64,000 nucleotides of DNA from an uncultured Nitrospiraceae bacterium (GTDB lineage: Bacteria > Nitrospirota > Thermodesulfovibrionia > Thermodesulfovibrionales > UBA6898), in the NCBI GenBank assembly GCA_964506525.1, contig CAZDLA010000001.1:155047-219046 (forward strand). The letters run 5' to 3'. The first letter of the stretch is position 1. Every line of letters starts with the position of its first letter. This document shows positions 24,601-54,006 of this stretch, piece after piece. The notes under the pieces are model-generated. The model did not search any database. It saw only the letters and a list, made by a program, of their open reading frames with translations, and was not told where the DNA came from. Position numbers and translations under genes: made by a program.

Positions 24601-26248
24601 AATATGCTTCGGTCTTTCCGTGGCCGCCTACATAGCCACTATAGCCACTGTCCATATAGATGCCCCATGCATTGGTAGTTCCACCGATGTTGGTTGTCGA
24701 TGACCAATAGAAAATAGTTTGAACGCCTGTGAATGGGTGGTTTGCCGGAAGAGGAGGAGTAGACCTGTCAGCATCTACAAGACTCTCCAGCTCATTAATA
24801 TTCGGCATTCTCCAGTCATTATGCCCAAGGTAGTTGTTTGTGTTCAGGCAAGCCACATAATCGAGCGCGGCCGTCCAGGTCTTTGTGCCGCCGGTGCAGG
24901 TCGGAGTTCCTAAAACGGTCGGCGTGCCGGCATCTTTAGCCCACTCAAGGCCAGTGAGTTTATCCTGTATGATATTGCTGTTTTCGCTTGAGGCCACAAA
25001 TCTCGGGCTCGGCCATGCAGCGCCCGCCTGTATCTCTCCATCCTGTCCCGTGCCTGCGCATGATGCAAGCTCAGTCCCAGCTGCGTTATAACACTTCGTC
25101 TGTCCTGTGCGTGGAAGCTGGATCATAGGAATGGGGGTGAAGAGTTCGGCAGAGGAAAGCTTTGTACTGCCAGCGTCAATTCCTCCAGCAACAAGCACAA
25201 TACCATTGAGGAGATTTGCTGCTATGTGGCCACCGCGTGTGCTTGTCATGCTTCCGGTCGCGATAAATGTCCCGGTGTTCGGATCATACAGCTCCGCTGA
25301 ACTAAGAGCTACAGTACTGCTGTAGCCTCCTGTAACCAATACCTTGCCATTAGAAAGAAGTGTTGCTGAGTGATAAGTCCGTTCGATATTCAAGCTCCCT
25401 GTCGCAGTAAAAACCCCGGTAATCGGATCATATAATTCTGCCGAACTAAATGGCGTACCATTGCTGCCACCTGCTATCAGAACCTTGCCGTTAAACAGAA
25501 GTGTTGCTGTTGCAAGAGTCCTTCCAATACTTGTATTTCCTGTTGCAGTAAAGGTTCCTGTATTAGGATCATATAAATCTGCAGAAGTAGTTACAGAACT
25601 TCCCCCGCTAAATGCTCCATTTACAACAAGCACCTTACCATTTTGAAGCAATGCAGCCGCATGTAAATATCTTGCAGAGTTCATGTTCCCGGTAGCAGTA
25701 AATGTCCCAGTGCCCGGATCATACAATTCTGCCGAGCTATGTCTGGTTGAACCGTTCCACCCACCAGTAATAAGCACCTTGCCATTTTGCAGAAGCGTTG
25801 CCGTGCTACCCTGTCTTCCAATACTCATGCTACCCGTAGTCGAAAATGTACCTAACCCCGGGTCATACAATTCTGCTGTGACGGGATAGCCTGAACTGCC
25901 ATACCCCCCTGTGATTAATACCTTACCATTCGTCAGAAGTGTCGCCTGAAAATCATATCTTGCATAGGTCATGCTGCCCGTGGAAGTAAATGTGCCGGTG
26001 CCCGGATCATACAATTCTGCTGAGTTGAGGGAACTGCCGGAGCTGTTGCCGCCTCCAACTACAAGCACCTTGCCGTTTTGAAGCAATACAGATTGAGAGT
26101 ATGGCCGCGCAGTGCCCATACTCCCCGTTGTCGTCCAGTAGCCGTTATCGGCGGCAAAGGCGTCCTTCGACGGGCTCAGAATGACAACTGAAAGAACGGA
26201 GATGACAAGCAGTATTGCAACCAGACAGTTTCTTTTGATGGACCTCAT
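6614..26248 (-). CDS. Giant secreted multidomain surface / adhesin-like protein (6,544 aa)
   Basis: Single uninterrupted 19,635-nt ORF with GGAGG just upstream of the ATG. Sec-type signal peptide (MRSIKRNCLVAILLVISVLSVVILSPSKDAFA|AD). Modules recognised by eye, N to C: Kelch-like propeller; 2x DUF1566 (TGLEW...DWRMPN..EL..L...YWSST...VWPVR); LamG / concanavalin-like (LVAYYPFNGNANDESGNGN...IDEVRIYNRAL); InlB-B-repeat-like domain; a second Kelch-DUF1566x2-LamG copy; PD40/TolB-like propeller; Ig/FN3-like domains; a Kelch_1-type propeller; chitobiase-C-like (IYYTTNGSDPT) domains x2; a third LamG; He_PIG-like Ig x2; more DUF1566 and Kelch; a clan-CD peptidase-like domain; a CarboxypepD_reg-like domain; 3 tandem Ig-like repeats; a right-handed beta-helix; 2 C-terminal Ig-like domains. 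Confidence 0.9.
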   Translation of the reverse strand: MRSIKRNCLVAILLVISVLSVVILSPSKDAFAADNGYWTTTGSMGTARPYSQSVLLQNGKVLVVGGGNSSGSSLNSAELYDPGTGTFTSTGSMTYARYDFQATLLTNGKVLITGGYGSSGYPVTAELYDPGLGTFSTTGSMSIGRQGSTATLLQNGKVLITGGWNGSTRHSSAELYDPGTGTFTATGNMNSARYLHAAALLQNGKVLVVNGAFSGGSSVTTSADLYDPNTGTFTATGNTSIGRTLATATLLFNGKVLIAGGSNGTPFSSAELYDPITGVFTATGSLNIERTYHSATLLSNGKVLVTGGYSSTVALSSAELYDPNTGTFIATGSMTSTRGGHIAANLLNGIVLVAGGIDAGSTKLSSAELFTPIPMIQLPRTGQTKCYNAAGTELASCAGTGQDGEIQAGAAWPSPRFVASSENSNIIQDKLTGLEWAKDAGTPTVLGTPTCTGGTKTWTAALDYVACLNTNNYLGHNDWRMPNINELESLVDADRSTPPLPANHPFTGVQTIFYWSSTTNIGGTTNAWGIYMDSGYSGYVGGHGKTEAYYVWPVRAVSTGPAAVWRTGQTTQYAANDDGALQKGVSWPSPRFVDSGITVTDSLTGLIWTKDANAPGPGACGPATTKTWQGALDYVACLNANNYLGFRDWRLPNRKEIRSLANHELNYPALQSDHPFTNLQSNYYWLSTTVAGKTSYAWHSHTSSFHLGNEFAKSGSYYVWPVRGGTVNNTSYGLVAYYPFNGNANDESGNGNHGTVNGATLTTDRFGNTNMAYNFNGSSNKIYSTVDSKASISQVTVLAWINSKGTGGYATPTIAGVFSSGSQNPYYALNLELYTSYPRRPQFYAATTSVVASVGTNTRVNDNNWHHVATVFDGSQVNVYLDGKLDNSQSFPYTLRSFTSAVLAIGYSEGNYDWWNGAIDEVRIYNRALSPAEIQTLYATYTLTATKTGTGTGTVTPNTGTINWSGNTGTASYASGTSITLTATADSGNVFTGWSGEGCTGIGTCTVTMDLARNVTANFAANNYGNGYWTAPGSMGTGRAYHTATLLENGKALIAGGWNGSTNLSSAVLYEPVTGIFTSTGNLNQAVNGHAATRLPDGRVLITGGHNGTASVATAELYNPATGTFTNTGAMNTARHYHMSTLLPNGKVLITGGGSSSSSAVTALELYDPSSGTFTVVGNFSSERQQNTATLLSNGKVLIAGGLGSSGVSTAEIFDPNTNTLTATGNMNNARYAHAAALLPNGKVLVAGGWNGANMGSAELYDPSSGTFSLTGSMSVGRNCLGDDAILLSSGKVFIGCNSSGNGWAELYDPTAGTFSATSNMNIARDMHTVTLLSNGKVLIAGGRTDVEVYHSSAELFTPIPMIQLPRTGQTKCYNAAGTELASCAGTGQDGEIQAGAAWPSPRFVASTDNSNIIADKLTGLEWSKDGGTPTVPGAPTCTGGTKTWTAALDYVACLNTNNYLGHNDWYLPNINELDSLSNIEVSNNFAWLNGQGFTNVQSNVYWSSSTSIFNGDTSSAWLIHTDINTDRLLAYESKSNSHYVWPVRSNVNLALGSSVISQTGQRTSYYGADDGALQRGATWSLPRFTDNLDGTVTDSLTGIVFSKDANSLGPVTCGQATTKTWSQALAYVNCLNQNAFSGFSDWRLPNRNELHSLVDYSKYNPSLLSGHPFANLLGSDGQSNYYWSSSTCGFNKNWAWTIRLNDGHLTFGAKSSGNYVWPVRGGTILNPLTLTDGLVAYYPFNGNANDESGNGNNGTVNGATLTTDRFVNSNKAYSFDGVNDYIRSNTTIAINTNQATYSAWVNFRSSGSDVKQILEFKLGAGVIFLETDNSTKIRFGMSDGITGSTLFSPEALPLNSWHYVSGTYDGSLQKLYIDGVKVAEASLSINVLSSPINIGKDSEFNYQYIDGLIDDIRIYNRALSNAEIQSLYGETAQVRIAYVKNNDIWVTNETGATPQQLTSTAAIESNPSFSKDGSGIAFTSDSSGRNEIWSMTASGADLRQITNNHTTYPADNARWSADGQWIYFNSAASGDGEVWKIKSDGTGTAQQLTNVVGYNTQTVAMSRGGTNAAYVRGTEGNDASNKLYTSNTDFTSPFEIQANYAPHSPIYSFDDSKLLYSSTGGNIHIINNNGYGDQLVATLGSGSANDWYPSGSKVLVSTLGNLYWINTDGTNQTLITQGSSGSVGLAWGNDTVAPTILSATSTTANGGYKSGSAVNITLNFSEPVTSTGLTINLNSGTSITTGAFSLGSSWSGTYTVGVGQTAAALSISSISGTITDSATNSRTNPTIPASQNIADSKSIVIDTTAPTGVSAGANQTKNAQFTQTATATDTNAMTHSWTKQAGPGTVTFGAATALSTTISASATGTYTIRFTATDIAGNSTYSDMTLTWDITAPTAPTVTSTTALTNNQKPTWTWTPGGGGNGTYRYKLDNSDLTTGVTETAALNFTPASNLTEGLHTLYVQERDDVGNWSISGTKLITIDITGPTSGGSGTWTTKASMPVARPGNTVTGIDSLLYAVGGTNYSCGAYSTLEAYDPATNTWAAKTSMPSPRWAPSSAAVSGILYVVGGTDGCYNPNPGMNTIEAYDPATNTWTTKAPMPTTRRNFAVGAVNGILYAVGGISNGGGIIATVEAYDPATNTWSTKAPMPTARYNFGVGVVNGILYAVGGANYSVYLATVEAYNPATDAWTTVAPMSTGRSGHAVGVVNGIIYAVGGYNGVTPTTDSSEAYNPVTNTWSPAAPMPTTRQDVVGGVVNNILYVVGGGNASGVLLTVEAYTPASDAISINSNAASTNSASVTLTLSATDANGVSKMMVSNDPAFTGAPEVDYATSSPWTLAPGPDGVRTVYVKFKDNANNWSSVYNDTITLDTTGPVVTPSVAGGTYTTTQTVTLTCNDGTGTGCGNIYYTTNGSDPTTGSTVYSTPIIISATTTLKFFAVDSLGNPGSIVTAAYTIHGFNITNTSNISTGLVAWYPFNGNANDESGNGNNGTVNGATLTTDRFGNANNAYGFDGINDRVDVPGTNLSPALDDTKNFTIAHWVRLNQDVMSNFVLGYSQGLGNSMPVGAFQLSLKAYPAYGPGPYLYLDDNIGCNLTVGASALAVGQWQHVVTVWNAATHSTNIWVDGVNQAVTKQCDAVMSAKARTGTWTIGAYCPGSVPGSCDQQFLNGSLDDFRIYNRALSVSEIQALYGIADTINAVQGDTRSADLKLSSYGGYSQTADLTYAWVSTTPAGAAVNITPSSITPTPSGATTSVSFTAGAGTPVGTYTLRVTATSGSIIQTGDILVNVSAPLVISTTTLASGIKGQTYSPTFSATGGVGAYTFIVTSGTLPTGLSLNANGSFSGTLSARGTFTFTIQAADTDSHTDSKQYTVRVYDTAYRKLVLESTLWSIEQNSASGWIYAKVYDDYDALVTMASPTGIDITSTSGTGLFSADGASWSGIFSPDIATGASSKRFLYKDSTVNTFTITAAGVPGTSSEQWATGSHAITITAVQGSDTTPPSTVITGNPVAVTNSTSATFTFSANEPSTFECNLDSGGWAVCPSPQDYSGLSVAAHTFQVRAKDTAGNYDLTPASYSWTIDQTGPTGAGFGVIAKTGQTTSYGTRDDGALQAGLDYTSPAFTDNGSSVTDKVYGITWNKNAWSDVVSIPQGIAVPSPRFTDNNNGTVTDNLTGLLWLKNANCFGVQPWSAALSSANNLASGSCGLSDGSAAGDWRLPNILELASLPTNYISTPAAWLNGQGFSNVNAQANLYWSSSTYAYATNNARGFSMANGNLGDGVKTAGSPSVWPVRGGFSNSAGTGVTINYGAASTNSTSVTLSLSASDANGVSKMMVSNDSNLTDAVEENYVVSKAWTLLSGEGEKTVYAKFKDTAGNWSSVYSDTITLDLTVPTLELSAPSATLTSNNNVTYTTTYTGADTITLAPGNITLNKTGTADGTVAVSGTGNTTRTVTISGIIGNGTLGISLASGTGRDAAGNPTAAAGPSATFTVDNAAPTAPTVTSATALTSNNKPTWTWSPNGGGNGTFRYKLNSSNLISGATETTTVSFTPLTGLSDGSHTLYVQERDDTGNWSTSGSYTVTVDTTGPLGSSIGTGSFAATGSMNAPRTEHTATTLSSGKVLLVGGEDTGEHAVNTAETYDPASGNFTASGNMSLQRVVHTATLLSNGDVIIIGGQIPYVGFHTSSELYDPVTNAFTASGSMTNKRGVHSATLLSNGNVVVIGGYNESNTNPQVAEIYNSSTGTFTQTGSMVTPRDSHTATLLPNGRILITGGVARGFGYLSSAELYDPATGLFTATGSMSVARESHRAILLSNGTVLVSGGSNSTDYLSSAEIYNPATGTFSATGSLNVARRIFDVTSLPNGKILITGGNASSGASMSAFNSSEIYDPATGTFSMTGNMNYARTAQKSVLLLNGKVLITGGADGPWGNTKHSSAELYTPGADTILISNGAATTNSTSVSLALSATDPSGVATMMISNDASFTGASEVAYATNPGPWTLASGPDGIRTVYVKFKDTLGNWSVVYSDDITLDTTGPTVTPSVPAGTYTSAQTVTLSTEQGATIYFTTNGSEPTAGSTVYATPITISTTTTLKFFAIDSNGNPGGVVAPTYTIQGFTITANNFSVVQGETRQANLALTSFGGFDQAVSLTYAWHGTVPLNAGISISPTMITPTPAGVIATLSFTPGTTTIPGSYTVRITATGGGLTAFRDVIVTVAAPLSITTTVIGDGTGVKGTLFSSSVVIAGGIGPFTFTKTGSWPAGLTLNTDGNITGTPTTRGTYIFTIQVTDSTSHSASKQYSMRIYDPNYRRLVVESVNPSYLWEVQQGVASDWLKAKIIDDYDVTRKATSRTQIYVFSSSGTGLFSTGGDYFSSLLPFIETDSSSATFLYKDSNSGIYTITASGFTDSPSESWGLGTHTITVKAPNLSNTLLTVTPTQSSSFGQGVSIAGRLTNASTGGSVYPAEICLSFTAPSSTPVSGDCTSTNSSGNYGTFVDAAKIDIAGNWSVTATFSGNGLYNSKTASANFAVTRVDTSLSMSLNAASISPTGSITATGTLRTATTVPNGSLLNMPVTIEFTDPESIKHSVSAMTDAYGRYNVPFNQFGTKTGIWYAKATFAGNSNFTMSESASIDFNVANSAGYAILLEGDSNNTYRASYTRSLDDIRQKMLSRGFKDDPINNNIYYMSYETGPGYTGIVDALTTKQNVAAAIKTWAFNRIKDNGVAPLYLVLMDHGSDAGEGRFLIDQPVPDQVTDEYITPSELDSWITDLEASIQNDTSIPGRDQFKIIIINGFCYSGKFVSALSKPGKKRIIITSSSEDEQSLQGPTVGSTTYGEFFVYYLFSSLSQGETLINAFKDAATTTRQQLPCTTNCPSNNGNTKQNNGVGSRQNPLLDDNGDGVGSTMNVKGQEDGGLASGISLGLGTNPAMVKWDQIMPTITVMSGSGKTAFGMIDPAYVDTTWIELKKPSYNITGTGGTGQISLELKKIAYTGAEGSRWDFAIPSSGATGLDEAGKYTIYYYAKDRNQNILPPVTGTLYVNTETNLAPGAFGLITPENNSTITDGLMAFLWTKSTDPDVADIVTYTIKIYEDNAGFKGPEIMRYEQIRWEWFTLDGTKELRADGTDLFRFNEYYHWEVEAIDNKGMSVTSSNANRFRITYTNATGGLVYGYLRDALTNQPLLNAIVTINGITVPVLPPNGYYIKGVASGQCNINVTATGYGSRTESFYLAEEDSIKTDFNLTTSDTVAPSVTITSSAANPTNISLIPVTVTFSEAVTGFVSGDVTVGNGSISGFSGSGTTYTFNVTPAGNGAVTVDVAAGVALDAASNGNTAASQLSRTYDSTQPSVTITSSAANPTNVSPIPVTVTFSETVTDFVSGDVTVVNGSISGFSGSGTTYTFNVTPAGNGAVTVNVAAGVAVDAANNGNTAASQLSRTYDSAQPSVTITSSAANPTNVSPIPVTVTFSKIVTGFVSGDVTLGNGSISGFSGSGTTYTFNVTPAGNGAVTVDVAAGVAVDAASNGNTAASQLSRTYDSRTERTVCALGCDYQTVQQGIDASGSGDTLRIAQGTYRQNILLNKSLNLSGGWNNTFTTQTADPGITILNGDTDNDGVGEGSVLSITTSATVTIDNLTLFNGDASTGGGMNIAPASGLADISLSNCIISSNSADDGAGIHASASGSATINLSIQNCLIIGNNATDSGGGIKATATGTGSVVTVNMVNNTLTDNTATPGTAGGGIHATASSSGSVTITEKNDINWGNTDPNGPDVYSSASTGGTALIRAQNSNIGNGTYTNLGSNTSYDPEFLNTAGHDYRLDAISPCIDKGTASGAPADDILGVTRPKGIAPDMGAYEYTPSAPAIVRLLSPTGGEHIKAGTPYTVRWEKDPTVASIGLSYGSGGAWTAIKLPKTSTGTSFSWSMKKAPATNLDNMQFKITAYNASRGVIGEDTSDPFSMYLVWLMYPNGGEHLKSGRVYRVLWDTATLKKPPTSAAVEFITNAGAPCAPAGPAITITGNPGLYDWTVPTVVTPTTCKVRIVLKDSKGLTLTSDASDEAFTIVP
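8186..9049 (-). repeat. 3 x 288-bp near-identical tandem coding repeat (three 96-aa bacterial Ig-like domains) inside the giant ORF
   Basis: The unit PSVTITSSAANPTN(I/V)S(L/P)IPVTVTFSE.VTGFVSGDVT.GNGSISGFSGSGTTYTFNVTPAGNGAVTV.VAAGVA.DAA.NGNTAASQLSRTYDS.Q is repeated three times. Landmark strings recur at an exact 288-nt offset (e.g. GAAGGCTGAG at 8463 and 8751; GTCATACGTCCTGCT at 8189 and 8477). Confidence 0.9.
10290..10880 (-). other. Clan-CD (C13 legumain / gingipain-like) cysteine peptidase-like domain embedded in the giant ORF
   Basis: The segment AGYAILLEGD...APLYLVLMDHGSD...KIIIINGFCYSGKF...RIIITSSS shows the alpha/beta His...Cys dyad layout of clan CD. The His codon is at 10583-10585 (about aa 5222) and the Cys codon at 10400-10402 (about aa 5283). 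Confidence 0.5.
21824..22192 (-). repeat. Intragenic dispersed repeat, copy B (Kelch / DUF1566 junction), paralogous to 24785-25153
   Basis: High nucleotide similarity by eye to 24785-25153 at a constant 2,961-nt (987-codon) offset. Both encode ELFTPIPMIQLPRTGQTKCYNAAGTELASCAGTGQDGEIQAGAAWPSPRFVAS... Confidence 0.75.
24785..25153 (-). repeat. Intragenic dispersed repeat, copy A (Kelch / DUF1566 junction)
   Basis: See copy B. GCCACATAAT occurs at 24852 and 21891, and AGAGTTCGGCAGA at 25141 and 22180, both at an offset of 2,961 nt. Confidence 0.75.
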
Positions 26249-26343
26249 AACCCCTCCAAGGATTCAGAAAATTACTTTCTATTTGTTATCTATAGACGAA
26301 ACGAGAGACGCTTTCTTACATGTCCAAGGAATATTTTTTCGTG

Positions 26344-26380
26344 AAAACAAAAAAACCCATGCCTCTATGGCTATGGGTTT
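26344..26380 (-). terminator. Terminator / attenuator-like hairpin between the outer-membrane barrel gene and the giant ORF
   Basis: The minus strand reads AAACCCATAGCCATAGAGGCATGGGTTTTTTTGTTTT: an imperfect GC-containing stem followed by a T-run. It lies about 200 nt after the stop at 26576 and about 95 nt before the ATG at 26248. Confidence 0.45.
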
Positions 26381-26575: not shown

Positions 26576-27904
26576 TCATTTGAAATAATAAATGACCGAA
26601 GCCATAAGCGTATGCTGTTTGATATCCACTTTTCTGCCGGCAATAAAAGGGATATCAGCGCTGACGTTGTTGCCAAACCGAAATTGATATGCGATATCAA
26701 AGGCGAATCTGCCGCGCGCATACCCGGTTCCAAGCGAAAAGCCGTAATAATCATCCAGATATCCTGTCTGTGGTTCGGGGTCGTAAAACAGTCCGAATCT
26801 TGCAGGAATAACATACTTATCCTTGATAAACAGATATTCTGTTCCGACCCTGATCTGCGTTGTATCCTTCAGCCTTCCTTCACTTATGGGTTTTGAGGAG
26901 ACCGGGTTTATCGTATTTCCGGCACTGTTTTTCAATAAGAACGTCGACCAATCAGTCCGGTAAACATCAAGCGCAAGCGTCCATTTGTCAGAATGACGGT
27001 AAGAGAGCCCAAGTCCATACGAAGCAGGCATCTGCATGGTGAAACGCTCTGAGCTATGGGCAGAGTCCTCCGAATACAGTGGTATGTCCAGCCAGTTCTG
27101 GCTCGCAAATTCAGAGGTCTTACTCCGGAGCCTTGCGTCAAACGCGGTTTTATATACTCCGCCAAGAGTGAGGCGCTCATGAAAATTCCACAAAAAACCG
27201 ATATGCGCGTTTATGCCCTTGAACTCGACTGTTTTTTCTATCCGGTCTTTCATAATAACGGAGCCAGGAGGAAGATTACCGCTCTTGGTAGATGAATAGG
27301 TGCTCTGCCAGCCGTTGTTTCCGATATAGTCTCCCCAGAAATTCAGGGTCGCCCCAAGATAAAAACCGGGTGATACCTGCACAGCCATCGCAGGTGAGAG
27401 CGCATAAAGATATCCCTGCTGTTTGAATTTAATATTATCGTAAAGCTTGTCCCCGCCTACATCCCATGTGTAGTTAAAGTTGACATCTTTGTTCATGTCA
27501 TATAACCGCTGGTAATTAAGAGAAACAATCACGTTCCTTTTAAACAACTCAAATGGGTAGGCAATACTGAAATAATTTATGCCGTTTGCATCCATCCGGT
27601 TTACAGATTCAATTTCAGGGTGGATATCAGAGCTATAAGTCTGCTGCCTTGCAAATAATGAATAAACAACCGACATCTCAGGCTTTTCGAGTTGGACAAG
27701 GCCGGCCGGATTCCACGATGCAGCAGTTGCATCATCGGCCACGCCTATGAAAGCGCCGCCCATTCCCATAGCCCTTGCGCCCGAGCCCACAGGATTAAGG
27801 GACGAAGATATCTCTATCAGCTGCCCAAAAGCAGACGCAGGAACAATTGCAATCAAAAATAGTATTAACCGGCAAACTCTTACCCAACTCACTTGTAAAT
27901 TCAC
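26576..27904 (-). CDS. FadL / PorV-like outer-membrane beta-barrel protein
   Basis: 442 aa. GTG start preceded by GAGGAGG. Signal peptide ...IAIVPASAFG|Q. N-terminal hatch-like motif GSGARAMGMGGAFIGVADDATAASWNPAGL typical of FadL/TodX/PorV-type barrels. The remainder has alternating beta-strand character and ends in an aromatic residue (YYFK). Confidence 0.7.
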   Translation of the reverse strand: MNLQVSWVRVCRLILFLIAIVPASAFGQLIEISSSLNPVGSGARAMGMGGAFIGVADDATAASWNPAGLVQLEKPEMSVVYSLFARQQTYSSDIHPEIESVNRMDANGINYFSIAYPFELFKRNVIVSLNYQRLYDMNKDVNFNYTWDVGGDKLYDNIKFKQQGYLYALSPAMAVQVSPGFYLGATLNFWGDYIGNNGWQSTYSSTKSGNLPPGSVIMKDRIEKTVEFKGINAHIGFLWNFHERLTLGGVYKTAFDARLRSKTSEFASQNWLDIPLYSEDSAHSSERFTMQMPASYGLGLSYRHSDKWTLALDVYRTDWSTFLLKNSAGNTINPVSSKPISEGRLKDTTQIRVGTEYLFIKDKYVIPARFGLFYDPEPQTGYLDDYYGFSLGTGYARGRFAFDIAYQFRFGNNVSADIPFIAGRKVDIKQHTLMASVIYYFK

Positions 27905-28012: not shown

Positions 28013-29992
28013 TCACTTTGTCACGATCAGATCTTTGACCACTATCTCCTGAGGTGACGGCTTATCAAGAATCTTTGCCTTTGAAAAATCTTCCCGAATC
28101 TCCTCGAATCTGCCCTCGGCCAGCTTGATCGTATCAAAGCCTAATGACTTGCCCGTTACCGGATGCTTGAGCTCCTTGCCTCTGCGATACACAATGACCG
28201 CAGCGTCCTTGTGTATTTTGACCTTATTGCCGATGTCAGTGTAAATATACCCCTTGTCCTTATTGATCACTATGCCCTCGACAAGCGGGAATGCAACGGC
28301 GATTTTCGCAGCAAGACCTGCCATAAGCTCTTTTACCGAAGGGGCGCTCTTATCCTCAGTGAAGACATCGCGCACTTCCATGACCTGAGAGGTTTCGGTA
28401 TTGATCACGCGGGAGACGATCTCTATCGACTTCTGGTCCTCACGCACGGTAGTGGCCACAATCGCCTCGGCAGACATGAGCCTGCCGATCCTTATTGAAT
28501 GTTCGGGGTCAGTGAGCTTTGCCTTTGTGAGCTTCTGCTCAACCATCACCTGCTCGAGCTTGGAACGCTCTATCATATTAAACCGTTTCTGGTCTGTAAA
28601 AGCCCCGGCAAGATAATCATAGGCAAGGGTCATGAGATCCGTGCTCTTTTTCGTATCAAAGGGGAGCAGGCTGAGACTCATACGCGCCCCGTTCTGCAAA
28701 ACTGAAGGCACATGCTTCGTTATTGTGAATTCTGATACTGCCTTGTTGCCGCTGCTGTCAATTGCTTCGACAAGAATCCTGTTTCTGCCCTCGCTGAGTG
28801 TCAGCATCTTGCTGAAAAAGACCTTTCTGCCATTCTTTGATGATACCTCTTTACCGTTTATCAGGATCTTCTCAACGCTCTTATTGTCTGAAACTTCGCC
28901 ATCGATGTAATAGGAATTAAGAAAGACAAGAGGTATATCAGTCGGGTCTTTAAGTTTAATTTCAGGCAGTTCCTTGTCAGATGAGAGAATTCCCGGGCCA
29001 TTGAAGGCAAGCTGCACCCAGGGTTCTTTGCGTTGAAATACTGCAACTTCCCTGTCAACGTTAATGTCAGCATTTGTTTCATTGCCGAGCGTATCAACTG
29101 CGCGAATGCTGACCATTCCCTTTAAATCCACAGGCACTGTCAGATCGAAAGACTGGTTCTTCCTTTTCCCAGCTTTAACATCCTGTTCATTGATTACTAT
29201 GCTTTGAATTCCGGTGCCGTCTTCGACTTCGCCCATGATCCGTGCAATTTTCTTTCCATCCTGCACTTCAGTATTTACTCCAGTGATTACAATCGACGGT
29301 CCTTGTCTATCGACTATCACAAGAAGCGTCTTATCAGAAATATTACCCATGAGATCTTCAGCCCTGACCAAGATGCGGTTCTCGCCATCAGCGAGACTCA
29401 CGGCCTGTTCGAATGTCATCTGCTTGGCTGCCAGTTCGATATCAACGGCATGACTATTGACCGTCAACTTAGCAACAAGACATTCCCCAGAGACAGATCC
29501 CCTTATGACAATTGACTCGTCCTTTGTTGCCGAGTTTTCAGCAGGGGCATTCAGGGCAATTGCCGGCGGCTTTAATCCTGTCTGCTTCTGCCGAATCATG
29601 ATCGCCTTGCGTACCCTGTTTAGATAGAAAAATGCCTTTGCAGATCCTTCACTTTTTATGGACTCTTCGAGTTCTGCTGATGCACGATCAATATCACCGA
29701 GAGAAAGATAGGCAACGCCAAGCTCCCGGTGGGGAAAATAATCGACAAAATGCATGCCGTAGGTCCTGGCCATACGCTGGTCTTTTTCGCGCAGGGAAAG
29801 TGCTTTCAAAAGGTCAGTAACTGCTTCCTGCCATTTCCCCAGTTCAGCTTTTTCAACTGCACGGTCATAGTAATTCCACCATTTGCCTCTGAAGGTTCCG
29901 CTGTCATCAGCAGCAAGCACTGGAGGAACAAGAAAACAGAAGATAAGGACTATTGAAAAGGTTTTTTTCAATATGCAGGCTATCTCTTTCAT
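28013..29992 (-). CDS. Secreted TPR / Ig-like / CsgG-LpoB-like periplasmic protein
   Basis: 659 aa. Sec signal (VPPVLA|AD). TPR-like helical N-terminal region (aa 35-125). Three beta-sandwich (Ig-like) segments. aa 437-570 carry a CsgG/LpoB/FlgO-like motif (LSLLPFD...RFNMIERSKLEQVMVEQKL...IGRLMSAEAIVATTV), followed by an SH3-like beta domain. The start overlaps the upstream stop (ATGA at 29989-29992). Confidence 0.6.
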   Translation of the reverse strand: MKEIACILKKTFSIVLIFCFLVPPVLAADDSGTFRGKWWNYYDRAVEKAELGKWQEAVTDLLKALSLREKDQRMARTYGMHFVDYFPHRELGVAYLSLGDIDRASAELEESIKSEGSAKAFFYLNRVRKAIMIRQKQTGLKPPAIALNAPAENSATKDESIVIRGSVSGECLVAKLTVNSHAVDIELAAKQMTFEQAVSLADGENRILVRAEDLMGNISDKTLLVIVDRQGPSIVITGVNTEVQDGKKIARIMGEVEDGTGIQSIVINEQDVKAGKRKNQSFDLTVPVDLKGMVSIRAVDTLGNETNADINVDREVAVFQRKEPWVQLAFNGPGILSSDKELPEIKLKDPTDIPLVFLNSYYIDGEVSDNKSVEKILINGKEVSSKNGRKVFFSKMLTLSEGRNRILVEAIDSSGNKAVSEFTITKHVPSVLQNGARMSLSLLPFDTKKSTDLMTLAYDYLAGAFTDQKRFNMIERSKLEQVMVEQKLTKAKLTDPEHSIRIGRLMSAEAIVATTVREDQKSIEIVSRVINTETSQVMEVRDVFTEDKSAPSVKELMAGLAAKIAVAFPLVEGIVINKDKGYIYTDIGNKVKIHKDAAVIVYRRGKELKHPVTGKSLGFDTIKLAEGRFEEIREDFSKAKILDKPSPQEIVVKDLIVTK

Positions 29993-32685
29993 CGTGCTGC
30001 CGACTTTTCACGAACCTTGGCGCCTAAGGCAAGAGGTCCCTTCCCTGAGGCGAGAGATGCCAATGAACTGTCCTTGCCGGCGTCGACCACCTCGAGTTCT
30101 CCGACTGCAACATACATGTCGCCACTTGTGCCTAAAGCTGTTACAACCTCAAGTTTGTCACCTTTTTTCAGGCCATGGCTTTGCCCAATGTTCAGCTGAT
30201 ATCTGTCACCTGTCACGGCAGTTACTTTGCCGCGCAGAGGATATTCAGTCTTTATGGCCTCAAGGATTTTCATGCTCAGGTCATCGGCAGCATCCTTACC
30301 AAGCTCTTTAGACTTGGATTCCACCGTGATTACCTTCTTCACAGCAGTTGTTTCCGTATCTATGATCCGGAGCATGACGATTTGTCCGTGTTCATCCGGC
30401 ATAATGCTGCCGGTGACCATAACTCGGGCAGAAAGAACTCTTCCGACTCTTAGCGCAGTTGCCTGATCAGCAAGCGCAGAATTACTCAGCTTGAGTTCCT
30501 CAAGAAGCCGGTTTATAAGTTCTCTTTCGACCACATTGATGCGGCCTCCGGCTTGAAGTGTCTGTGAGGTATAGCCGATAAGTTTTTCGATTCTCGAACT
30601 ATCAGCCTTGATATCCATGAAGACCAGACTGAGCGGCATGGAACTCCAATTATCGCCCGGCTTGAGAGCATCAAATTTATTCTCCCGGTATTTCTGCGAC
30701 AGTGACGCGACCAGTTCATCAATCCTTTTGGAGTCCGTCTCTTTCTGCATAACCTGCTGCGGCTGATTGGCGGCTTTTTCAGGTATTTCTCCTGACCTGG
30801 TCTTCATATAGAAACCTGCTGCGCCAGCCAGAAGGAGCATGACAAGGCCGGCAACCATGAACACGTTTTTTTGTTTCTTTTTTCCTGGGAACTGCACGAC
30901 ATCTTCACGGTGCCTCAGGTCAGCTGTTGCCAGCGTCTCTCTCTCCACCCTCTCTTCTGCCTTTGTCTCCCGCAGTTCAACCTCTGGCATTACATACTTT
31001 GTGGTCGGATCACCATAGAGCATGTAACTTGCCCATACAATCATATCCTCTCCGTATTTGTCGATAAGCGCCTGGCGCGCCAGCCTCATAGCTTCGCCGA
31101 TTGAACTGCCCTGAAGCAGGTGACGGTAGAAATGTATGGCAAAGTGATAACCTGCCTCATCCGGTATCTCCCAAAAGGTGCCGATATAGTGCTGGACGCC
31201 GGAAATAAGGAAAGCATTGGCAAGACCAAATATCTTTGTCTCATAGTGTTCATCAAGTCGCCACTCATCTGTCTGGCCTGTCTGGCAGGCATTGGAAAAG
31301 ACGAGGGCAGGCATCGGCATAATACCTGACATAGCGATGATATTTTCTGCGCTCAGTTTACCGTTTTTGAGAAGCCAGCCGCTATCTTCAGGTTTCAGGG
31401 CATTGTGATCAGCATGACCTGCATAATGAACAATATCAAAGTTTCTGATCTTTGCCTTCACATAATCAGTCTTGATGTCTGTTGTTTTCAGGGAGACATC
31501 AAGCCAGTCATCTATGCTCTCAATATCGTCCTTGATCCTGACTCCTTCGGTATAGGCAGCCTGAAGATCACCTCTCGCGTCTGCGAGAATCTGCATTTTA
31601 AGTGGCTTGCCAATGGTCCGTATAACCGCGGAAACGCGCTGCCGGGTGCTTACTGCCCGACCAAGGCTGAAACGCTGGCAGAGGAAATTCTCGCCGTCAT
31701 GGAGCAGTTCCCATGGTATATGGACCAGATTGTCGTCTATGCTGATCAGCATATGATTGAAAACAGTCTTCGCGATCCTCTCTTTGATCTGAAGAGGCAT
31801 CAGCGCGTCGAAAAGCAGCCGCCCATATTCCTTCAGCTTGATGAGGAGATCATTGCCGATCTTGCCTCTCTTGTTAGCCCTGTTAAGTAGATCGATTATA
31901 TTTTTTGTATAGTTTCTGATCGTGTCCTGACTGTATTTGATCTCTTCATAGTGCCTGACTGTCCGCTCCTCGCCTTCAGCCTTCTCAAATCCGCTGATCT
32001 TCAGCTTTTCTCCAACAACCGATGCCTCTATAATGAGCGTTCCCTCTCTTTCGGCTGTGGAAGACAGCTTTCTGATCTTGCCCATAGAAACAAGCTCATC
32101 ATGCCAGATGACACGGAAGACCCTCAGAGCATCCTTCTTCCCCTTTACTTCTACCAACTTTTCATGTCTAAAGATAAACTCATCGTTGTTCTTAACTGCC
32201 CTGTACAGGTCTTCAGTAATAAAGATTTCATCGCCATCCGCAAGCGCCTCAACACGGCTCGCGACATTTACAATGTCACCAAAAACATCTGACTCTTCAA
32301 CAAGACCATCACCATAATTCATCCCGATTCTGACATGGATCTGTTCCCTATCGGCCTTGTCGCTGTTGTAGATCTTCAGCCTCCTCTGAATGTCAATCGC
32401 AGTTCGGATGCTGTCCGAAGGAGTATGGTATGCAGACATGGTTGCATCACCGATGGTCTTGATCAGGATACCGTTATGCTCCTTAATAATTGGCAGCACA
32501 ACCTCGTTATGTCTGTGCACCATAGCCCTGCCGGCTATATCGCCACGGGTGTCATACACTGATGTCGAGCCCTTGATGTCTGTGAACATTACCGTGATCT
32601 TTTTAGTGAACTTGGCATGAATCTGCGCATCAAGCTTGTCTCTTTCTGCCAGGATTCTGCCGATATCGGTTTTATTCTCTTCCAT
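29989..32685 (-). CDS. Fusion protein: class III adenylate/guanylate cyclase + CHAT (caspase-like) protease + TM helix + periplasmic CsgG/LpoB-like module
   Basis: 898 aa, with AAGGAG upstream of the ATG. Cyclase, aa 28-195: MFTDIKGST, KTIGDA, GDIVNVASR (metal Asp and transition-state Asn/Arg present). CHAT, aa about 215-560: IVHYAGHADH (His424 codon at 31414-31416) and LVFSNACQTG (Cys467 codon at 31285-31287). Single TM at aa 608-627, preceded by KKKQK (cytoplasmic side). Periplasmic aa 683-898: RINVVERELINRLLEELKL...VGRVLSARVMVTGSI. Confidence 0.8.
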   Translation of the reverse strand: MEENKTDIGRILAERDKLDAQIHAKFTKKITVMFTDIKGSTSVYDTRGDIAGRAMVHRHNEVVLPIIKEHNGILIKTIGDATMSAYHTPSDSIRTAIDIQRRLKIYNSDKADREQIHVRIGMNYGDGLVEESDVFGDIVNVASRVEALADGDEIFITEDLYRAVKNNDEFIFRHEKLVEVKGKKDALRVFRVIWHDELVSMGKIRKLSSTAEREGTLIIEASVVGEKLKISGFEKAEGEERTVRHYEEIKYSQDTIRNYTKNIIDLLNRANKRGKIGNDLLIKLKEYGRLLFDALMPLQIKERIAKTVFNHMLISIDDNLVHIPWELLHDGENFLCQRFSLGRAVSTRQRVSAVIRTIGKPLKMQILADARGDLQAAYTEGVRIKDDIESIDDWLDVSLKTTDIKTDYVKAKIRNFDIVHYAGHADHNALKPEDSGWLLKNGKLSAENIIAMSGIMPMPALVFSNACQTGQTDEWRLDEHYETKIFGLANAFLISGVQHYIGTFWEIPDEAGYHFAIHFYRHLLQGSSIGEAMRLARQALIDKYGEDMIVWASYMLYGDPTTKYVMPEVELRETKAEERVERETLATADLRHREDVVQFPGKKKQKNVFMVAGLVMLLLAGAAGFYMKTRSGEIPEKAANQPQQVMQKETDSKRIDELVASLSQKYRENKFDALKPGDNWSSMPLSLVFMDIKADSSRIEKLIGYTSQTLQAGGRINVVERELINRLLEELKLSNSALADQATALRVGRVLSARVMVTGSIMPDEHGQIVMLRIIDTETTAVKKVITVESKSKELGKDAADDLSMKILEAIKTEYPLRGKVTAVTGDRYQLNIGQSHGLKKGDKLEVVTALGTSGDMYVAVGELEVVDAGKDSSLASLASGKGPLALGAKVREKSAAR

Positions 32686-32696
32686 AAGGGGCTCCT

Positions 32697-33335
32697 TTAT
32701 TCCAGGCTCAGCGTCACAGCGCCGAACAGGTGGTCTTTTTTCCTGATTCTTAATGAATAACTTCCTTTGCCAATCTCCTCAAAAAGCACAAATCCATGTT
32801 CAACAAAATACGACGCAAGTTCCCTCTCGCCTGAGATGAGCTCTATCCTGATCCCTTGAGACTGGAAGCCGGCTGTGGTCGGCACGACAGTGACCTTAAT
32901 ATTGCAGAGCTCTGCTTCTATCTGCTCAATATCAATCTCAGCATTCATTTTCTCAAAGGTCTTCGTAATCACAGCCATCCGTGCGCTGACAGCCTTGCTG
33001 TTTCTCAATTCAAATGCAGGTGCAGGATATGACAACTGAAGGGAAGGAGAGCTCTTTATAACTCTGAGCGTCTCTTTCATGAGGCTTATAACAACATCAA
33101 AGGGAGATCTGCCTTCCCCGTACAGGGCTGCAGCTCGAATGATCGCCCGCTCAGGTATATCTTCTGTATCGTTATCATGCCTGCCGGTCAGTCGCCTGAG
33201 TGCAATCAGTTCCCTCAGGCAATCCGGGCATTCTGCCAGCTTCTGCTCAACAACCTCTCTTCTGTCTATGGCGAGCTTTCCGTCCATATAGGCGCCGAGA
33301 TCAAATTCAGTCAGGCAGCCTCTGTCTTTATGCAT
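32697..33335 (-). CDS. Anti-sigma factor (zf-HC2-like N-terminus, no predicted TM helix)
   Basis: ATG at 33335 is preceded by AAGGAGG (the track GTG at 33356 is less likely). N-terminus CLTEFDLGAYMDGKL....REVVEQKLAECPDCLRELIAL resembles the anti-sigma sigma-binding domain with CxxC. The position immediately downstream of the ECF sigma gene supports the call. The C-terminal 120 aa are beta-rich with no hydrophobic span. Confidence 0.6.
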   Translation of the reverse strand: MHKDRGCLTEFDLGAYMDGKLAIDRREVVEQKLAECPDCLRELIALRRLTGRHDNDTEDIPERAIIRAAALYGEGRSPFDVVISLMKETLRVIKSSPSLQLSYPAPAFELRNSKAVSARMAVITKTFEKMNAEIDIEQIEAELCNIKVTVVPTTAGFQSQGIRIELISGERELASYFVEHGFVLFEEIGKGSYSLRIRKKDHLFGAVTLSLE

Positions 33336-33390
33336 AAGTTCCTCCTTGCAAGTCACTTCTATGCTTATAGACGGAACAGATCAGCATTTC

Positions 33391-33990
33391 TTACAGAACC
33401 CCAACAGATTTCTTCAATTTCTCAGCCAGTCGGTTCTTCCGTGAGTATACAGTTTCAGCACTAATGCCCATAATTACCGCAATTTCCTCGGGAGAAAGTC
33501 CCTTTTCCAAGACCAGGCGAATAATAAGGCTATCTTGTGCACCTAATTGGGTTATAGCCGCATTCAGTCTCTCGTCACGTTGCTTTTCAATAAATAGATG
33601 TTCAATGGACTTTTCTGATGCTGGGATAGACTCATAAATGTCACGCTCCCCATCTTTTGTCTCCACGAACAGCTGACTTTTATCCTGTCTCATATGATCT
33701 ATAGCTGTTCGCGAGGCAATGATGGTCAGCCACGTAGAAAGTGAGCAGGAATTTTCGCTCCTGAACTGGCGGAGCTTTTTGAAGTCATTATCAAGAAGCG
33801 AAACGAATACGGCATTGAATATGTCCTCGAGGTCTTCCTCTGTATGCCGAAATGAATAAGAGAGGAATGTCTTTCTCAGCGTGCCCCAAATAAGTTTTGC
33901 ATAGCGTCTCACAAAAAGCTCCCAGACAACCCCATCCCCTTCATTGAGGCATTTTCTGAGAAGCTCGCTTTCGCTTAAAACGTCATTCAT
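33391..33990 (-). CDS. ECF-type RNA polymerase sigma-70 family factor
   Basis: 199 aa. Region 2 (DLEDIFNAVFVSLL...LSTWLTIIASRTAIDHMR) and region 4 HTH (GLSPEEIAVIMGISAETVYSRKNRLAEKLKK). No region 1 or 3, as in group IV sigmas. Confidence 0.85.
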   Translation of the reverse strand: MNDVLSESELLRKCLNEGDGVVWELFVRRYAKLIWGTLRKTFLSYSFRHTEEDLEDIFNAVFVSLLDNDFKKLRQFRSENSCSLSTWLTIIASRTAIDHMRQDKSQLFVETKDGERDIYESIPASEKSIEHLFIEKQRDERLNAAITQLGAQDSLIIRLVLEKGLSPEEIAVIMGISAETVYSRKNRLAEKLKKSVGVL

Positions 33991-34116: not shown

Positions 34117-34145
34117 ATATTAAGCAGATAAAGGAAGAATGTCAA
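34117..34145 (-). promoter_or_regulatory. Sigma70-like promoter upstream of the ECF sigma operon
   Basis: The minus strand reads TTGACA (34145-34140), a 17-nt spacer, then TAATAT (34122-34117), about 125 nt upstream of the ATG at 33990. A second TTGACA lies at 34172-34167. Sequence match only. Confidence 0.4.
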
Positions 34146-34221
34146 TATTTATAGGGCGTTATACGCTGTCAAAACAATAATGTCGCGAACAACGTTAGAG
34201 AAAATGCAATGAACATAAAGT

Positions 34222-34308
34222 TGGTACCGAAGACCGGATTTGAACCGGTACGAGGTTGCCCCCGAGGGATTTTAAGTCCCTTGTGTCTGCCAATTCCACC
34301 ACTCCGGC
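34222..34308 (-). tRNA. tRNA-Leu (anticodon UAA)
   Basis: The minus strand reads GCCGGAGTGGTGGAATTGGCAGACACAAGGGACTTAAAATCCCTCGGGGGCAACCTCGTACCGGTTCAAATCCGGTCTTCGGTACCA. It has a 7-bp acceptor stem, anticodon loop CTTAAAA (TAA), a long variable arm, a GGTTCAAATCC T-loop and an encoded CCA. Confidence 0.9.
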
Positions 34309-50430: not shown

Positions 50431-50764
50431 GAAGTGACCGGGGACTGAAGGGCTTCGTAATGTAACGGCTCACACCGCACTGGATACCCTGCTGTTCATC
50501 AGAATCCTGACCCTTTGCCGTCAGCATGAAAATAGGGATATCCTTCAGTTCAGGATCTGCCTTGATCATCTTGCAAAGATCTATACCGCTCAGTTCAGGC
50601 ATCATCCAGTCGAGGATGATGAGTTCAGGTATATCTTTCTTGATCACCTCAAGGGCATTTCTGCTCTCGCGCAGTGTCGTAACATCGATCTTCGCCTTCT
50701 TGAGCTTGTCCTCTATCATCATCAGGATAAAGGGCTCATCATCGATCACAATAACCTTGCTCAC
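50396..50764 (-). CDS. Single-domain response regulator (CheY-like receiver)
   Basis: 122 aa. VIDDEP, phospho-acceptor context LIILDWMMP, LTAKG, and a conserved Lys (ITKPF). Confidence 0.85.
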   Translation of the reverse strand: MSKVIVIDDEPFILMMIEDKLKKAKIDVTTLRESRNALEVIKKDIPELIILDWMMPELSGIDLCKMIKADPELKDIPIFMLTAKGQDSDEQQGIQCGVSRYITKPFSPRSLLEMVQEIIGKA

Positions 50765-53700: not shown

Positions 53701-54006
53701 CAGTGCATGAGAGCCTTCCTGAAGATTCCTGAGCGAGATGAGCATCTTTCTGAGGAAAAAGATGGCCATGATAAAAGAGAGGATTAGAATATAGAAAATG
53801 AAAGGGATCATCTGCTCGACCAATTTAGCAGTGAATTCTTTATGCATAAGACTGTATTCCTCAGACTTAACCTGCTCCAGAGCCTCTTCTTTTTCGATCA
53901 TTTTCTGGACCTGTTTGACTACTGACAGGGAGAAGGGAACAATGATCATCATGGCAAAGATCAGAAGAACAGCGATAAATCGGTAGAGAATCTTCGTCTT
54001 GAACAT
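50761..54006 (-). CDS. Multi-sensor histidine kinase (2 TM, HAMP, PAS, PAS, GAF, GAF, PAS, HisKA, HATPase_c)
   Basis: H-box SVSHEFRTPLSAI. N/G boxes (NFIDNSLTF, DNGWGI, GTGLGLAL). ATG at 54006 (MFKTKILYRF) shares one base with the upstream stop (TGATG). The track start at 54054 would overlap the upstream gene by 49 nt. Confidence 0.85.
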   Translation of the reverse strand: MFKTKILYRFIAVLLIFAMMIIVPFSLSVVKQVQKMIEKEEALEQVKSEEYSLMHKEFTAKLVEQMIPFIFYILILSFIMAIFFLRKMLISLRNLQEGSHALQEGRLVTKLPVISDDELGDVTRTFNAMAESLRTKTLELGKKDMYISAMLDPLWVVDMEDRITDVNPAFTKLFGYSREDMLGSSVYDFVDDRNVSILRRQIEEKRDKGESSIYEVSILSKNGVQIPVLISGSPIFDGDRIVARIGILKDFREQNTLRNNLQQSLDYFETIMNSIPDEIVVIDKDYRIITANKVSMMHAERDLTGELCHHALHGSSVPCWTDGYECPTQIVFATGKTHRTVHQHVEPDGSRKYHEIIASPVTDPSGKVLHVIELLSDITDKMKSEEQIIQKNKELISLNSISSILNRSLKPDEIFAKVLDKMIEMIGMDGGGIFFLDEASKEMNCQYHKGISEDYVKMLGRIRLGDDIPGKVAVTGQIMTTSDISKDERIERSVMKHSGMRGYCCFPIKGKERIIGVFCLFSFNPHLFTGEEENILSAIGEMTGMALENIRLYDRMRSLFEQQRNRWADEHQQLLHISAKLGAAADIGDSMMQVLALIKKVFRADFVWMLSQDQDANLLLRFATESTGREGTTIYPAEVSSLEKYALSKRHPIMVNDIRSEEKFYIAQDVSAYHSAMAVPMFIGEKPVGVCSLYYSLYREFREEDLRFMEIITNMISVAIERSEFYARAGKEKELADTILQSVQEGIITVDLNGRIIAVNQAFERMTGIRPEQAITLPVCEVFRFSDENISFRLLLGESVEEAKQSISTTRSSLLTTLYGNRVPVTITSSPILDRNNTVTGIVNLVRDVSREKELDKMKTELIRSVSHEFRTPLSAIVGMTEMLLHGDVEGDKVNTYLSTIRNEGARLSKMVTELLSIARIESGKETLKFSSVVLDELMKGIAETFGQLLANKNAILKYDPGEVKTVVTDEEKMKQLLINFIDNSLTFSNEGCIIEVHTKRNDDMLEIIIADNGWGIPNEDIPHLAERFYRGRHGDRVKGTGLGLALCHELLVMLNGTMNITSRLGEGTKITMSIPYREVV

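Follow-up and report, generated by a model that had tools for sequence, protein, structure and literature searches.

The 64-kb window analyzed here (the whole stretch of 64,000 nucleotides, to which all positions below refer) comes from an uncultured Nitrospiraceae bacterium and encodes an 898-aa membrane protein in which a class III nucleotide cyclase is fused to a CHAT caspase-like protease. We found that this receptor is the third gene of a conserved operon, which comprises a sigma factor of the extracytoplasmic function (ECF) type, a soluble anti-sigma factor, the CHAT receptor, a periplasmic partner, and a FadL-like outer-membrane protein. On balance, we lean toward an explanation in which these genes make up a trans-envelope signalling module, where CHAT would cleave the anti-sigma factor, cAMP would be a second output, and the sigma factor would drive the operon and a neighbouring giant gene. 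A first-pass annotation, made from the DNA letters and translated reading frames, had read the fusion as either nucleotide-gated proteolysis or two outputs from one sensor. That interpretation was partly supported by our analysis, and the sigma/anti-sigma operon context, which supplies the likely protease substrate, had been missed.

The cyclase-CHAT receptor

The receptor and its parts are encoded as follows; pLDDT stands for the predicted local distance difference test of the AlphaFold2 (AF2) model, and TM for transmembrane.

29989..32685, minus strand: cyclase-CHAT single-pass receptor, 898 aa (open reading frame, Pfam, conservation, AF2)
32107..32616, minus strand: class III adenylyl-cyclase domain, aa 24-193 (Pfam PF00211; similarity to Ma1120)
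31006..32052, minus strand: CHAT caspase-like module, aa 212-560 (Pfam PF12770; dyad H424/C467)
30868..31005, minus strand: disordered juxtamembrane linker, aa 561-606, ending in KKKQK (low pLDDT, poor conservation)
30799..30867, minus strand: single TM helix, ~aa 607-629 (hydropathy)
29992..30798, minus strand: periplasmic sensor region, aa 630-898 (alpha/beta CsgG/LpoB-like domain and FlgT_C-like beta-barrel)

The 898-aa open reading frame (ORF) and its motifs had been located correctly by the first-pass annotation, with FTDIKGST at aa 34-41, KTIGDA at 76-81, GDIVNVASR at 136-144, and KKKQK at 602-606, and the same was true of the protease dyad (H424, codon 31414-31416; C467, codon 31285-31287). 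Both domain matches are far above chance: Guanylate_cyc (PF00211) aligned with aa 24-186 with an E value of 2.9e-22 and 79.6 bits against a Pfam cut-off of 21.9, and CHAT (PF12770) with aa 286-559 with an E value of 3.6e-37 and 128.8 bits against a cut-off of 24, the latter spanning the whole profile (positions 2-289 of 289). The best PDB match of the cyclase by sequence was Ma1120 (phmmer, E 3.5e-23), and when the AF2 model, which was built on 51 homologues and has a mean pLDDT of 78, was compared by Foldseek, the cyclase fold superposed on Ma1120 with a TM-score of 0.92, a root-mean-square deviation of 1.4 Å, and ~31% identity. The six canonical cyclase residues are all present. From the family motif patterns F-x-D-I-x-G-S-T, K-x-x-G-D, and N-x-A-S-R, we take D36 and D80 to be the metal-binding residues, K76 and D133 the adenine-type substrate-specifying pair, and N140 and R144 the transition-state residues.

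Residue conservation was assessed in an alignment of 51 full-length homologues, where D36, D80, R144, H424, and C467 were invariant (51/51), and K76, D133, and N140 were conserved in at least 90%. The AF2 model places H424 right after beta-strand 418-423 and C467 right after beta-strand 461-466, and this strand-end position is, in the model, the geometry of the caspase fold. The earlier claim that both catalytic sets are intact was borne out, as neither the Pfam alignment, nor the conservation, nor the strand placement indicated a substitution or misassignment. The receptor has the sequence and fold of a class III cyclase and the profile and dyad of a CHAT protease, and both enzyme activities are predicted; moreover, the Lys76/Asp133 pair predicts that the cyclase makes cAMP. 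A fold search with the full-length model returned cyclases for all of its top 50 matches, giving no independent fold evidence for the CHAT and periplasmic domains. When PDB was searched by sequence, the CHAT part found a single CHAT match, the CHAT-domain protein 8tl0, at a marginal E value of 0.0013, and the periplasmic domain only non-significant FlgT matches (E ~1).

Hydropathy analysis detected one hydrophobic segment, at about aa 606-628, where the Kyte-Doolittle value peaks at 2.21 (aa 608-626); the N-terminus shows neither a hydrophobic stretch nor a signal sequence. A single TM helix is found at the equivalent position in most homologues, and the count of Lys plus Arg was higher on its N-terminal side in 48 of 72 homologues and lower in 6, supporting an N-in topology with both enzymes predicted to be cytoplasmic. 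These data agree with the single-pass arrangement proposed before, but not with the 215 aa then assigned to the periplasm, as this region is ~270 aa long (630-898). It is well folded in the AF2 model (pLDDT ~85-92) and matched CsgG with an E value of 1.5e-6, though partially (profile positions 46-99 of 210), and more weakly LpoB (E 0.0036) and FlgT_C (E 8.5e-4). It is also paralogous to the C-terminal part of the 659-aa periplasmic partner (29% identity, E 1e-14). Identity with the curli secretion channel CsgG (PF03783) was rejected because the match covers only part of the profile, lies C-terminal to the TM helix, and has no lipobox; the domain is CsgG/LpoB-like in fold only. The linker that precedes the TM helix is Arg/Glu-rich and ~45 aa long, has pLDDT values below 50 over aa 569-616, and its family consensus holds no majority residue over most of its length in the 51 homologues.

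Synteny, modularity, and the anti-sigma factor

The other genes of the operon and the candidate cleavage site are the following.

33391..33990, minus strand: ECF-type sigma factor, 199 aa (TIGR02937 E 4e-26; Pfam Sigma70_r2, r4_2)
32697..33356, minus strand: soluble anti-sigma factor, 219-aa ORF (weak zf-HC2; 212 aa if translation begins at M8, 33335, as is likely)
33003..33005, minus strand: codon of anti-sigma R118, candidate CHAT cleavage site (conservation and flexible loop)
28013..29992, minus strand: secreted periplasmic partner, 659 aa (Pfam Glucodextran_B, Big_13, CsgG, TPR)
26576..27904, minus strand: FadL/PorV-like outer-membrane beta-barrel, 442 aa (Pfam Toluene_X E 9e-18)

All neighbouring genes of the module lie on the minus strand. 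The sigma factor contains sigma2 and sigma4 regions only, as expected of the ECF type. The receptor gene follows the anti-sigma gene after an 11-nt gap containing AGGAG and overlaps the gene of the partner by 4 nt, and the latter protein carries an N-terminal hydrophobic signal peptide, TPR, Ig-like domains, and a CsgG-like domain. Among NCBIfam models, the outer-membrane barrel scored best with that of the BamG family beta-barrel-assembly machinery protein, at 74 bits against a cut-off of 250, and next with PorV/PorQ; the BamG and PorV matches are below their cut-offs, and the similarity is to cargo-shuttle or BAM-accessory barrels.

The receptor family comprises 799 proteins with E values below 1e-5 in the protein collection, and their source annotations read only 'CHAT domain-containing protein' or 'class 3 adenylate cyclase/CHAT domain-containing protein'. 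A phyletic survey of the architecture, which had been suggested with the first-pass annotation, found 348 relatives in a scan of representative genomes, one for each of 185,579 species. The best 80 genome matches were all metagenome-assembled genomes (MAGs), and a contig from the MAG of an uncultured Nitrospiraceae bacterium shares 97% identity with the window. Other relatives belong to Thermodesulfobacteriota (Geobacter, Syntrophobacter, Syntrophorhabdaceae), Nitrospinota, Rokubacteria/Methylomirabilota, Binatia, Planctomycetia, and Omnitrophota. Gene context was counted in 83 related loci, which span at least 8 phyla; their ORFs were called and searched with five window proteins, and many of the loci without a module gene are cut by contig ends.

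The recurrent order in these loci was sigma factor, anti-sigma factor, and CHAT receptor, followed by the periplasmic partner and the outer-membrane protein, which could stand in either sequence. Homologues of the sigma factor were present in ~51 loci, of the anti-sigma factor in 57, of the partner in 63, and of the outer-membrane protein in 49, and the sigma homologue stood directly upstream of the anti-sigma/CHAT genes in ~51/83. The reverse search, started from the anti-sigma profile, led to a CHAT gene directly next in 4/4 informative proteins. As for receptor architecture, 44 loci encode the cyclase-CHAT-TM-CsgG-like form and 15 a CHAT-TM-CsgG-like form without cyclase, and further variants have TPR or ankyrin repeats on the far side of the membrane. 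What stays constant is the CHAT-TM core; a cyclase may be present or absent. In five loci (L042, L059, L060, L066, and L083), two to four CHAT paralogues stand in tandem after the sigma/anti-sigma pair, and some of these have N-terminal signal-like hydrophobic segments in place of the receptor architecture. The homologues in L044 and L051 are ~1200 aa long, with the TM helix near residue 890 and ~280 extra cytoplasmic residues, and the metal-binding Asp residues of their cyclase are replaced by Glu (EKEDNR and EKEDNS).

The protease dyad followed the presence of the sigma/anti-sigma pair. Among CHAT proteins with an adjacent anti-sigma factor and at least 1.5 kb of upstream sequence, the dyad was intact in 53/53, and all 28 cyclase-less CHAT homologues kept His and Cys. 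The receptor-type members of the latter group (CHAT-TM-CsgG-like) have the anti-sigma factor in the locus wherever upstream sequence exists, and the sigma factor in all but one. Conversely, eight homologues have a broken dyad, with His changed to Gln, Pro, or Glu and/or Cys changed to Ser or Ala, and none of the eight has an adjacent sigma/anti-sigma pair, including all 6 with at least 1.5 kb upstream. They are all from Rokubacteria/Methylomirabilota (L061, L063, L067, L069, L072, L073, L074, and L077), and their gene order is outer-membrane protein, periplasmic partner, and receptor. In these proteins D36, D80, N140, and R144 are kept, and Gln/Asn replaces Lys76/Asp133, which may mean a different nucleotide product. 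By this comparison it is the protease that goes with the sigma/anti-sigma pair, independently of the cyclase: the cyclase-less homologues keep the module and the clade with the dead dyad lacks the pair, suggesting that CHAT most likely cleaves the anti-sigma factor, and that the cyclase is an independent add-on with cAMP as a separable second output.

The same data bear on nucleotide-gated proteolysis, the first of the two readings offered initially, according to which the product of the receptor's own cyclase would switch on the adjacent CHAT, as cA3 does with SAVED-CHAT in type III CRISPR. The fusion of two conserved enzymes speaks for it, and nucleotide-activated CHAT proteases do exist (bioRxiv 10.1101/2023.06.23.546230). 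Profile scans of the receptor, however, detected no cyclic nucleoside monophosphate (cNMP)-binding, GAF, CARF, or SAVED-type sensor, and CHAT is kept with its dyad in all of the cyclase-less homologues and in the same gene context in the receptor-type ones. In addition, separate cNMP-binding proteins adjoin cyclase-bearing versions in four loci (L001, L017, L048, and L049), with architectures of two cNMP-binding domains plus rhodanese, cNMP-binding plus GAF, or cNMP-binding plus CBS and DUF294, suggesting a diffusible output rather than gating in cis. We regard nucleotide gating as quite unlikely. The comparative data agree with the second initial reading, two outputs from one sensor, since cyclase and CHAT come apart in evolution (28 cyclase-less and 8 dead-dyad homologues).

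The properties of the anti-sigma factor are compatible with cleavage in the cytoplasm. Hydropathy (a 19-residue window with a Kyte-Doolittle mean of at least 1.6 taken as a TM helix) found no such helix in the window protein or in 56 of the 57 homologues that made up the alignment of this family, which is therefore predicted to be cytoplasmic and soluble. A canonical membrane-anchored anti-sigma factor released by regulated intramembrane proteolysis, of the RseA/RsiW/DdvA type, was ruled out by this lack of a TM helix; the usual release by a periplasmic site-1 protease and RseP would be impossible, and the protein would share its compartment with CHAT. The family pattern in the alignment is C..H-x3-C-x2-C, and all three Cys are kept in the window protein. 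Its AF2 model (pLDDT 75) shows a helical N-domain, a beta-hairpin, a low-confidence loop of ~20 residues, and an Ig-like beta-sandwich; a fold search returned generic Ig-like sandwiches only, none with an E value of 0.001 or less. R118, in the motif hydrophobic-R-[G/N/S], is conserved in 95% of the 57 homologues and invariant in alignment A3. It lies at the end of the loop (pLDDT <50) that joins the two folded parts, and the rest of this loop varies in length and sequence; a residue so conserved within a flexible inter-domain loop makes R118 a candidate protease site. An exhaustive profile search sized the family at ~650 clusters at 50% identity with E values of 1e-10 or less, mostly of 210-270 aa, while a word-indexed search returned 4 proteins when queried with the single sequence and 24 when queried with a profile, a low yield because the family diverges quickly.

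The linker of the receptor offers a different target. CHAT could cut it in trans within a dimer, freeing a soluble cyclase-CHAT fragment, with the anti-sigma factor controlled otherwise or indirectly. Such self-processing would suit the 45-aa disordered, Arg/Glu-rich segment between CHAT and the TM helix and the 11 intact-dyad homologues that have no adjacent anti-sigma factor, and for DdvA it has been proposed that a linker undergoes autoproteolysis in trans (PMC11506125). We consider it unlikely, as the linker has no conserved motif, unlike the anti-sigma loop with its near-invariant Arg, and as the tight synteny with a TM-less anti-sigma factor, seen in both search directions, would be left unexplained.

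Predicted promoters and the proposed mechanism

The elements upstream and downstream of the operon are listed below.

33364..33395, minus strand: ECF-type motif TGTAAGAA-N14-CGTCTAT, immediately upstream of the anti-sigma gene and overlapping the stop codon of the sigma gene
26290..26320, minus strand: second copy of the ECF-type motif TGTAAGAA-N14-CGTCTAT, ~45 nt before the giant gene and just after the hairpin
26344..26380, minus strand: terminator-like hairpin with U-run, 3' of the outer-membrane protein gene (-17.3 kcal/mol, z -4.1)
6614..26248, minus strand: giant secreted/surface protein, 6544 aa, predicted regulon member
34117..34172, minus strand: two overlapping candidate sigma-70-like promoters (consensus matches only), upstream of the sigma gene
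34222-34308, minus strand: tRNA-Leu (anticodon taa), directly upstream, marking the boundary of the module with housekeeping genes

The motif TGTAAGAA-N14-CGTCTAT is a typical ECF-style -35/-10 pair and is predicted to be a promoter. When the 64-kb window was searched with the pattern AAGAA-N13-16-CGTCTA, exactly 2 matches were found, against 0.05 expected, and the spacing is identical in the copies before the anti-sigma and giant genes. The same motif was also observed at the equivalent place before the anti-sigma genes of at least 19 related loci, and a similar motif precedes an ORF of >2000 aa in L010. The first copy overlaps the stop codon of the sigma gene, which itself would not be autoregulated from that copy. 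Analysis of gapped-dyad enrichment in 49 regions upstream of sigma genes gave AT-rich noise only; in the window, the sigma-70-like candidates at this place read TTGACA-17-TAATAT and TTGACA-17-AATATT, with 10/12 matches each. The hairpin between the outer-membrane protein gene and the second motif copy was found by its folding energy, and a simple terminator scan made no call there.

The 6544-aa protein has an N-terminal Sec signal peptide and many Kelch, Lcl_C, Laminin_G_3, Big_12/13, He_PIG, and CHB_HEX_C_1 domains, and no C-terminal sorting signal was recognised in it. In 18/83 loci the module is flanked by non-CHAT ORFs that are 1200 aa or longer. Giant proteins of the RCC1/NHL/BNR type occur at the equivalent place in L001 and L002. 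The neighbourhood of giant multidomain proteins, in the window as in these 18 loci, together with the resemblance of the outer-membrane protein to PorV/BamG-type proteins, could mean that the module matures, anchors, or secretes the giant protein, with the barrel as shuttle and CHAT as processing protease. We judge this very unlikely: CHAT is predicted to be cytoplasmic, whereas the giant protein has a Sec signal peptide, most loci have no giant gene within the flanks fetched, and the sigma/anti-sigma pair and the promoter motif indicate transcriptional control.

According to the explanation that we favour, the 898-aa receptor would be the inner-membrane hub of a trans-envelope signalling module, whose periplasmic CsgG/LpoB/FlgT-like domain would perceive an envelope or surface cue together with the paralogue-bearing partner and the FadL-like protein. 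The signal would have to cross one TM helix and a disordered, unconserved linker of ~45 aa, so a rigid allosteric transmission is unlikely, and induced proximity or dimerisation is the most plausible route. Class III cyclases assemble their active sites where the two halves of a dimer meet, and proteases of the caspase fold become active through proximity. As both types of enzyme need proximity or dimerisation, clustering of the periplasmic domains, driven by the partner and the barrel, could turn both on together. CHAT would then cut the soluble anti-sigma factor, with the R118 motif as candidate site, and free the ECF sigma factor, and cAMP made by the cyclase would serve as a second, diffusible message. 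The freed sigma factor would transcribe the TGTAAGAA-N14-CGTCTAT promoters, that is, the anti-sigma/receptor operon, in a feedback loop, and the 6544-aa gene. More tentatively, we propose that this is a hitherto undescribed route of ECF activation, in which a proximity-switched membrane CHAT protease cuts an anti-sigma factor at a hydrophobic-Arg-Gly site and the receptor adds a cAMP pulse; in Nitrospirota, Thermodesulfobacteriota, and several further phyla, both outputs together would control how giant surface proteins are produced.

The anti-sigma factor is, from its synteny, the predicted CHAT substrate, and the mechanism as a whole is a prediction from sequence; several observations weigh against this explanation. 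The dead-dyad homologues form one clade and hence represent one evolutionary event, so that a Fisher p of 9e-5 for the association of dyad and pair overstates its support. In eleven homologues, of the Geobacter type and others, the dyad is intact and no sigma/anti-sigma pair adjoins the gene, which may mean another protease substrate or a pair elsewhere in the genome. The Arg site is a guess, as the P1 specificity of CHAT proteases varies, being Arg in separase and Leu or Met in craspases (PMC11506125). The anti-sigma assignment itself has weak points: the zf-HC2 match of the window protein reached an E value of 0.0016 and 19 bits against a Pfam cut-off of 22.2, and residue 39 is Lys where 88% of the homologues have the His of the motif, suggesting that zinc binding may be altered. 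The location of the promoter between the sigma and anti-sigma genes, and not upstream of the sigma gene, is unusual. Finally, no cNMP-binding protein or domain was found to be encoded anywhere in the 64-kb window.

Related systems and flanking genes

The closest parallel is the type III-E Craspase, whose CHAT protease Csx29 cleaves Csx30 and thereby relieves the inhibition of an ECF-like sigma factor (PMC10028731). Both systems link a cytoplasmic CHAT protease genetically to an ECF-type sigma factor and a soluble inhibitor, and cleavage of the inhibitor between two domains, the activating step in Craspase, is what we propose here. Nevertheless, the window module has no Cas7-11/gRAMP, no CRISPR array, and no TPR arm, its protease is fused to a cyclase, its anti-sigma factor is putatively of a zinc-binding anti-sigma (ZAS)-like type and not Csx30-like, and activation would come from a periplasmic sensor through the TM helix and not from target RNA. 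The sigma factor matched the CAS_III-E_sigma model weakly (E 4.5e-10, 39.8 bits against a cut-off of 100) and is not a member of that family. Membership in type III-E was rejected on this score, on the lack of Cas proteins among the Pfam-scanned window products (0/15), and on the failure of Pfam to find TPR in the CHAT protein. Similar logic connects the module with CalpL-CalpT-CalpS, where a signal-activated cytoplasmic protease acts with a soluble anti-sigma factor plus a sigma factor of ECF-like type; CalpL is a SAVED-Lon protease of type III CRISPR that responds to cA4, in contrast to CHAT and an envelope cue in our case (bioRxiv 10.1101/2024.05.08.593097).

DdvA is a periplasmic TPR-CHAT protein fused to a transmembrane anti-sigma factor (PMC11506125). 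The DdvA/DdvS system resembles the window module in being an ECF sigma pathway with CHAT in a single-pass membrane protein that is probably dimeric, and in that signal-induced CHAT proteolysis has been proposed as the trigger. There, however, CHAT lies in the periplasm, fused to the anti-sigma factor, and intramembrane cleavage by RseP follows, whereas the window CHAT is predicted in the cytoplasm, on a receptor separate from a soluble anti-sigma factor. FecA-FecR-FecI and RseA/DegS likewise have outer-membrane, periplasmic, and single-pass inner-membrane proteins encoded together with an ECF sigma factor, and anti-sigma proteolysis as the switch. The differences are that the outer-membrane protein of the window is FadL-like and not a TonB-dependent transducer, that its membrane protein is not the anti-sigma factor, and that its protease is caspase-like and cytoplasmic, where the Fec/RseA type uses a periplasmic serine protease and then a site-2 protease. 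The cyclase shares the fold and the metal, substrate, and transition-state residues of Ma1120-type enzymes (PDB 4wp9, 5d0e), but it is an N-terminal module upstream of a protease, while most receptor cyclases have their catalytic domain C-terminal to the sensor. The ECF54 group, near whose sigma factors CHAT proteins are also encoded, was set aside as not the same, since a review describes it from Actinobacteria and without an anti-sigma factor.

A role in anti-phage defence or abortive infection, with CHAT and cyclase as immune effectors comparable to those of Borvo (CHAT), Pycsar (cyclase), and the gasdermin-activating proteases, is suggested by the known presence of both domains in defence systems, by weak PADLOC matches to PycC (E 3.9e-8, 31 bits) and BovA (E 1.4e-4), and by the control of a defence island by DdvA/DdvS (PMC11506125). 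The PADLOC matches amount to generic domain similarity, though, and the other four genes had none or one marginal match. The outer flanks of the module are housekeeping in nature, with an HMGL-like/LeuA-dimer synthase, an amino-acid kinase with ACT domains, phosphoglycerate mutase, Lon, and the tRNA, and no defence or mobile genes are present in them; the conserved partners of the receptor are envelope proteins and giant surface proteins. Pycsar in particular was rejected, because the PycC matches are weak, the window has no cNMP-binding gene, and the K/D pair is of the adenine type and not a Pycsar-like pyrimidine pocket. We therefore rejected the defence reading on the PADLOC result and the housekeeping flanks, and consider it highly improbable.

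A literature search, incomplete in its coverage and thus giving absence of evidence only, found no study of a cyclase-CHAT fusion or of a sigma/anti-sigma/CHAT-receptor module. The fusion architecture is common and annotated in databases, and so is not new as a sequence; the module and its proposed mechanism look like a variant of protease-controlled ECF signalling that appears new. Soluble anti-sigma factors without a known release mechanism are common, and a receptor-tethered caspase-like protease would, if the explanation is right, be a new release route for them, paralleling the CRISPR-linked Craspase and CalpL outside immunity. It would also offer a concrete, testable substrate and candidate cleavage site for one of the many orphan bacterial CHAT proteases, and an example of a single receptor with proteolytic and second-messenger outputs. 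With a module this widespread, and best matches that are all MAGs, the result bears on the control of giant adhesin-like proteins in poorly known environmental lineages.

Two other signalling genes of the window are unrelated to the module. The product of one, at 40636-43305 on the minus strand, is a hybrid histidine kinase containing PAS and GAF domains; the other, at 50761-54054 on the same strand, is an ORF of 1097 aa that matched solely the cNMP_binding+GAF query from L048, probably through GAF.

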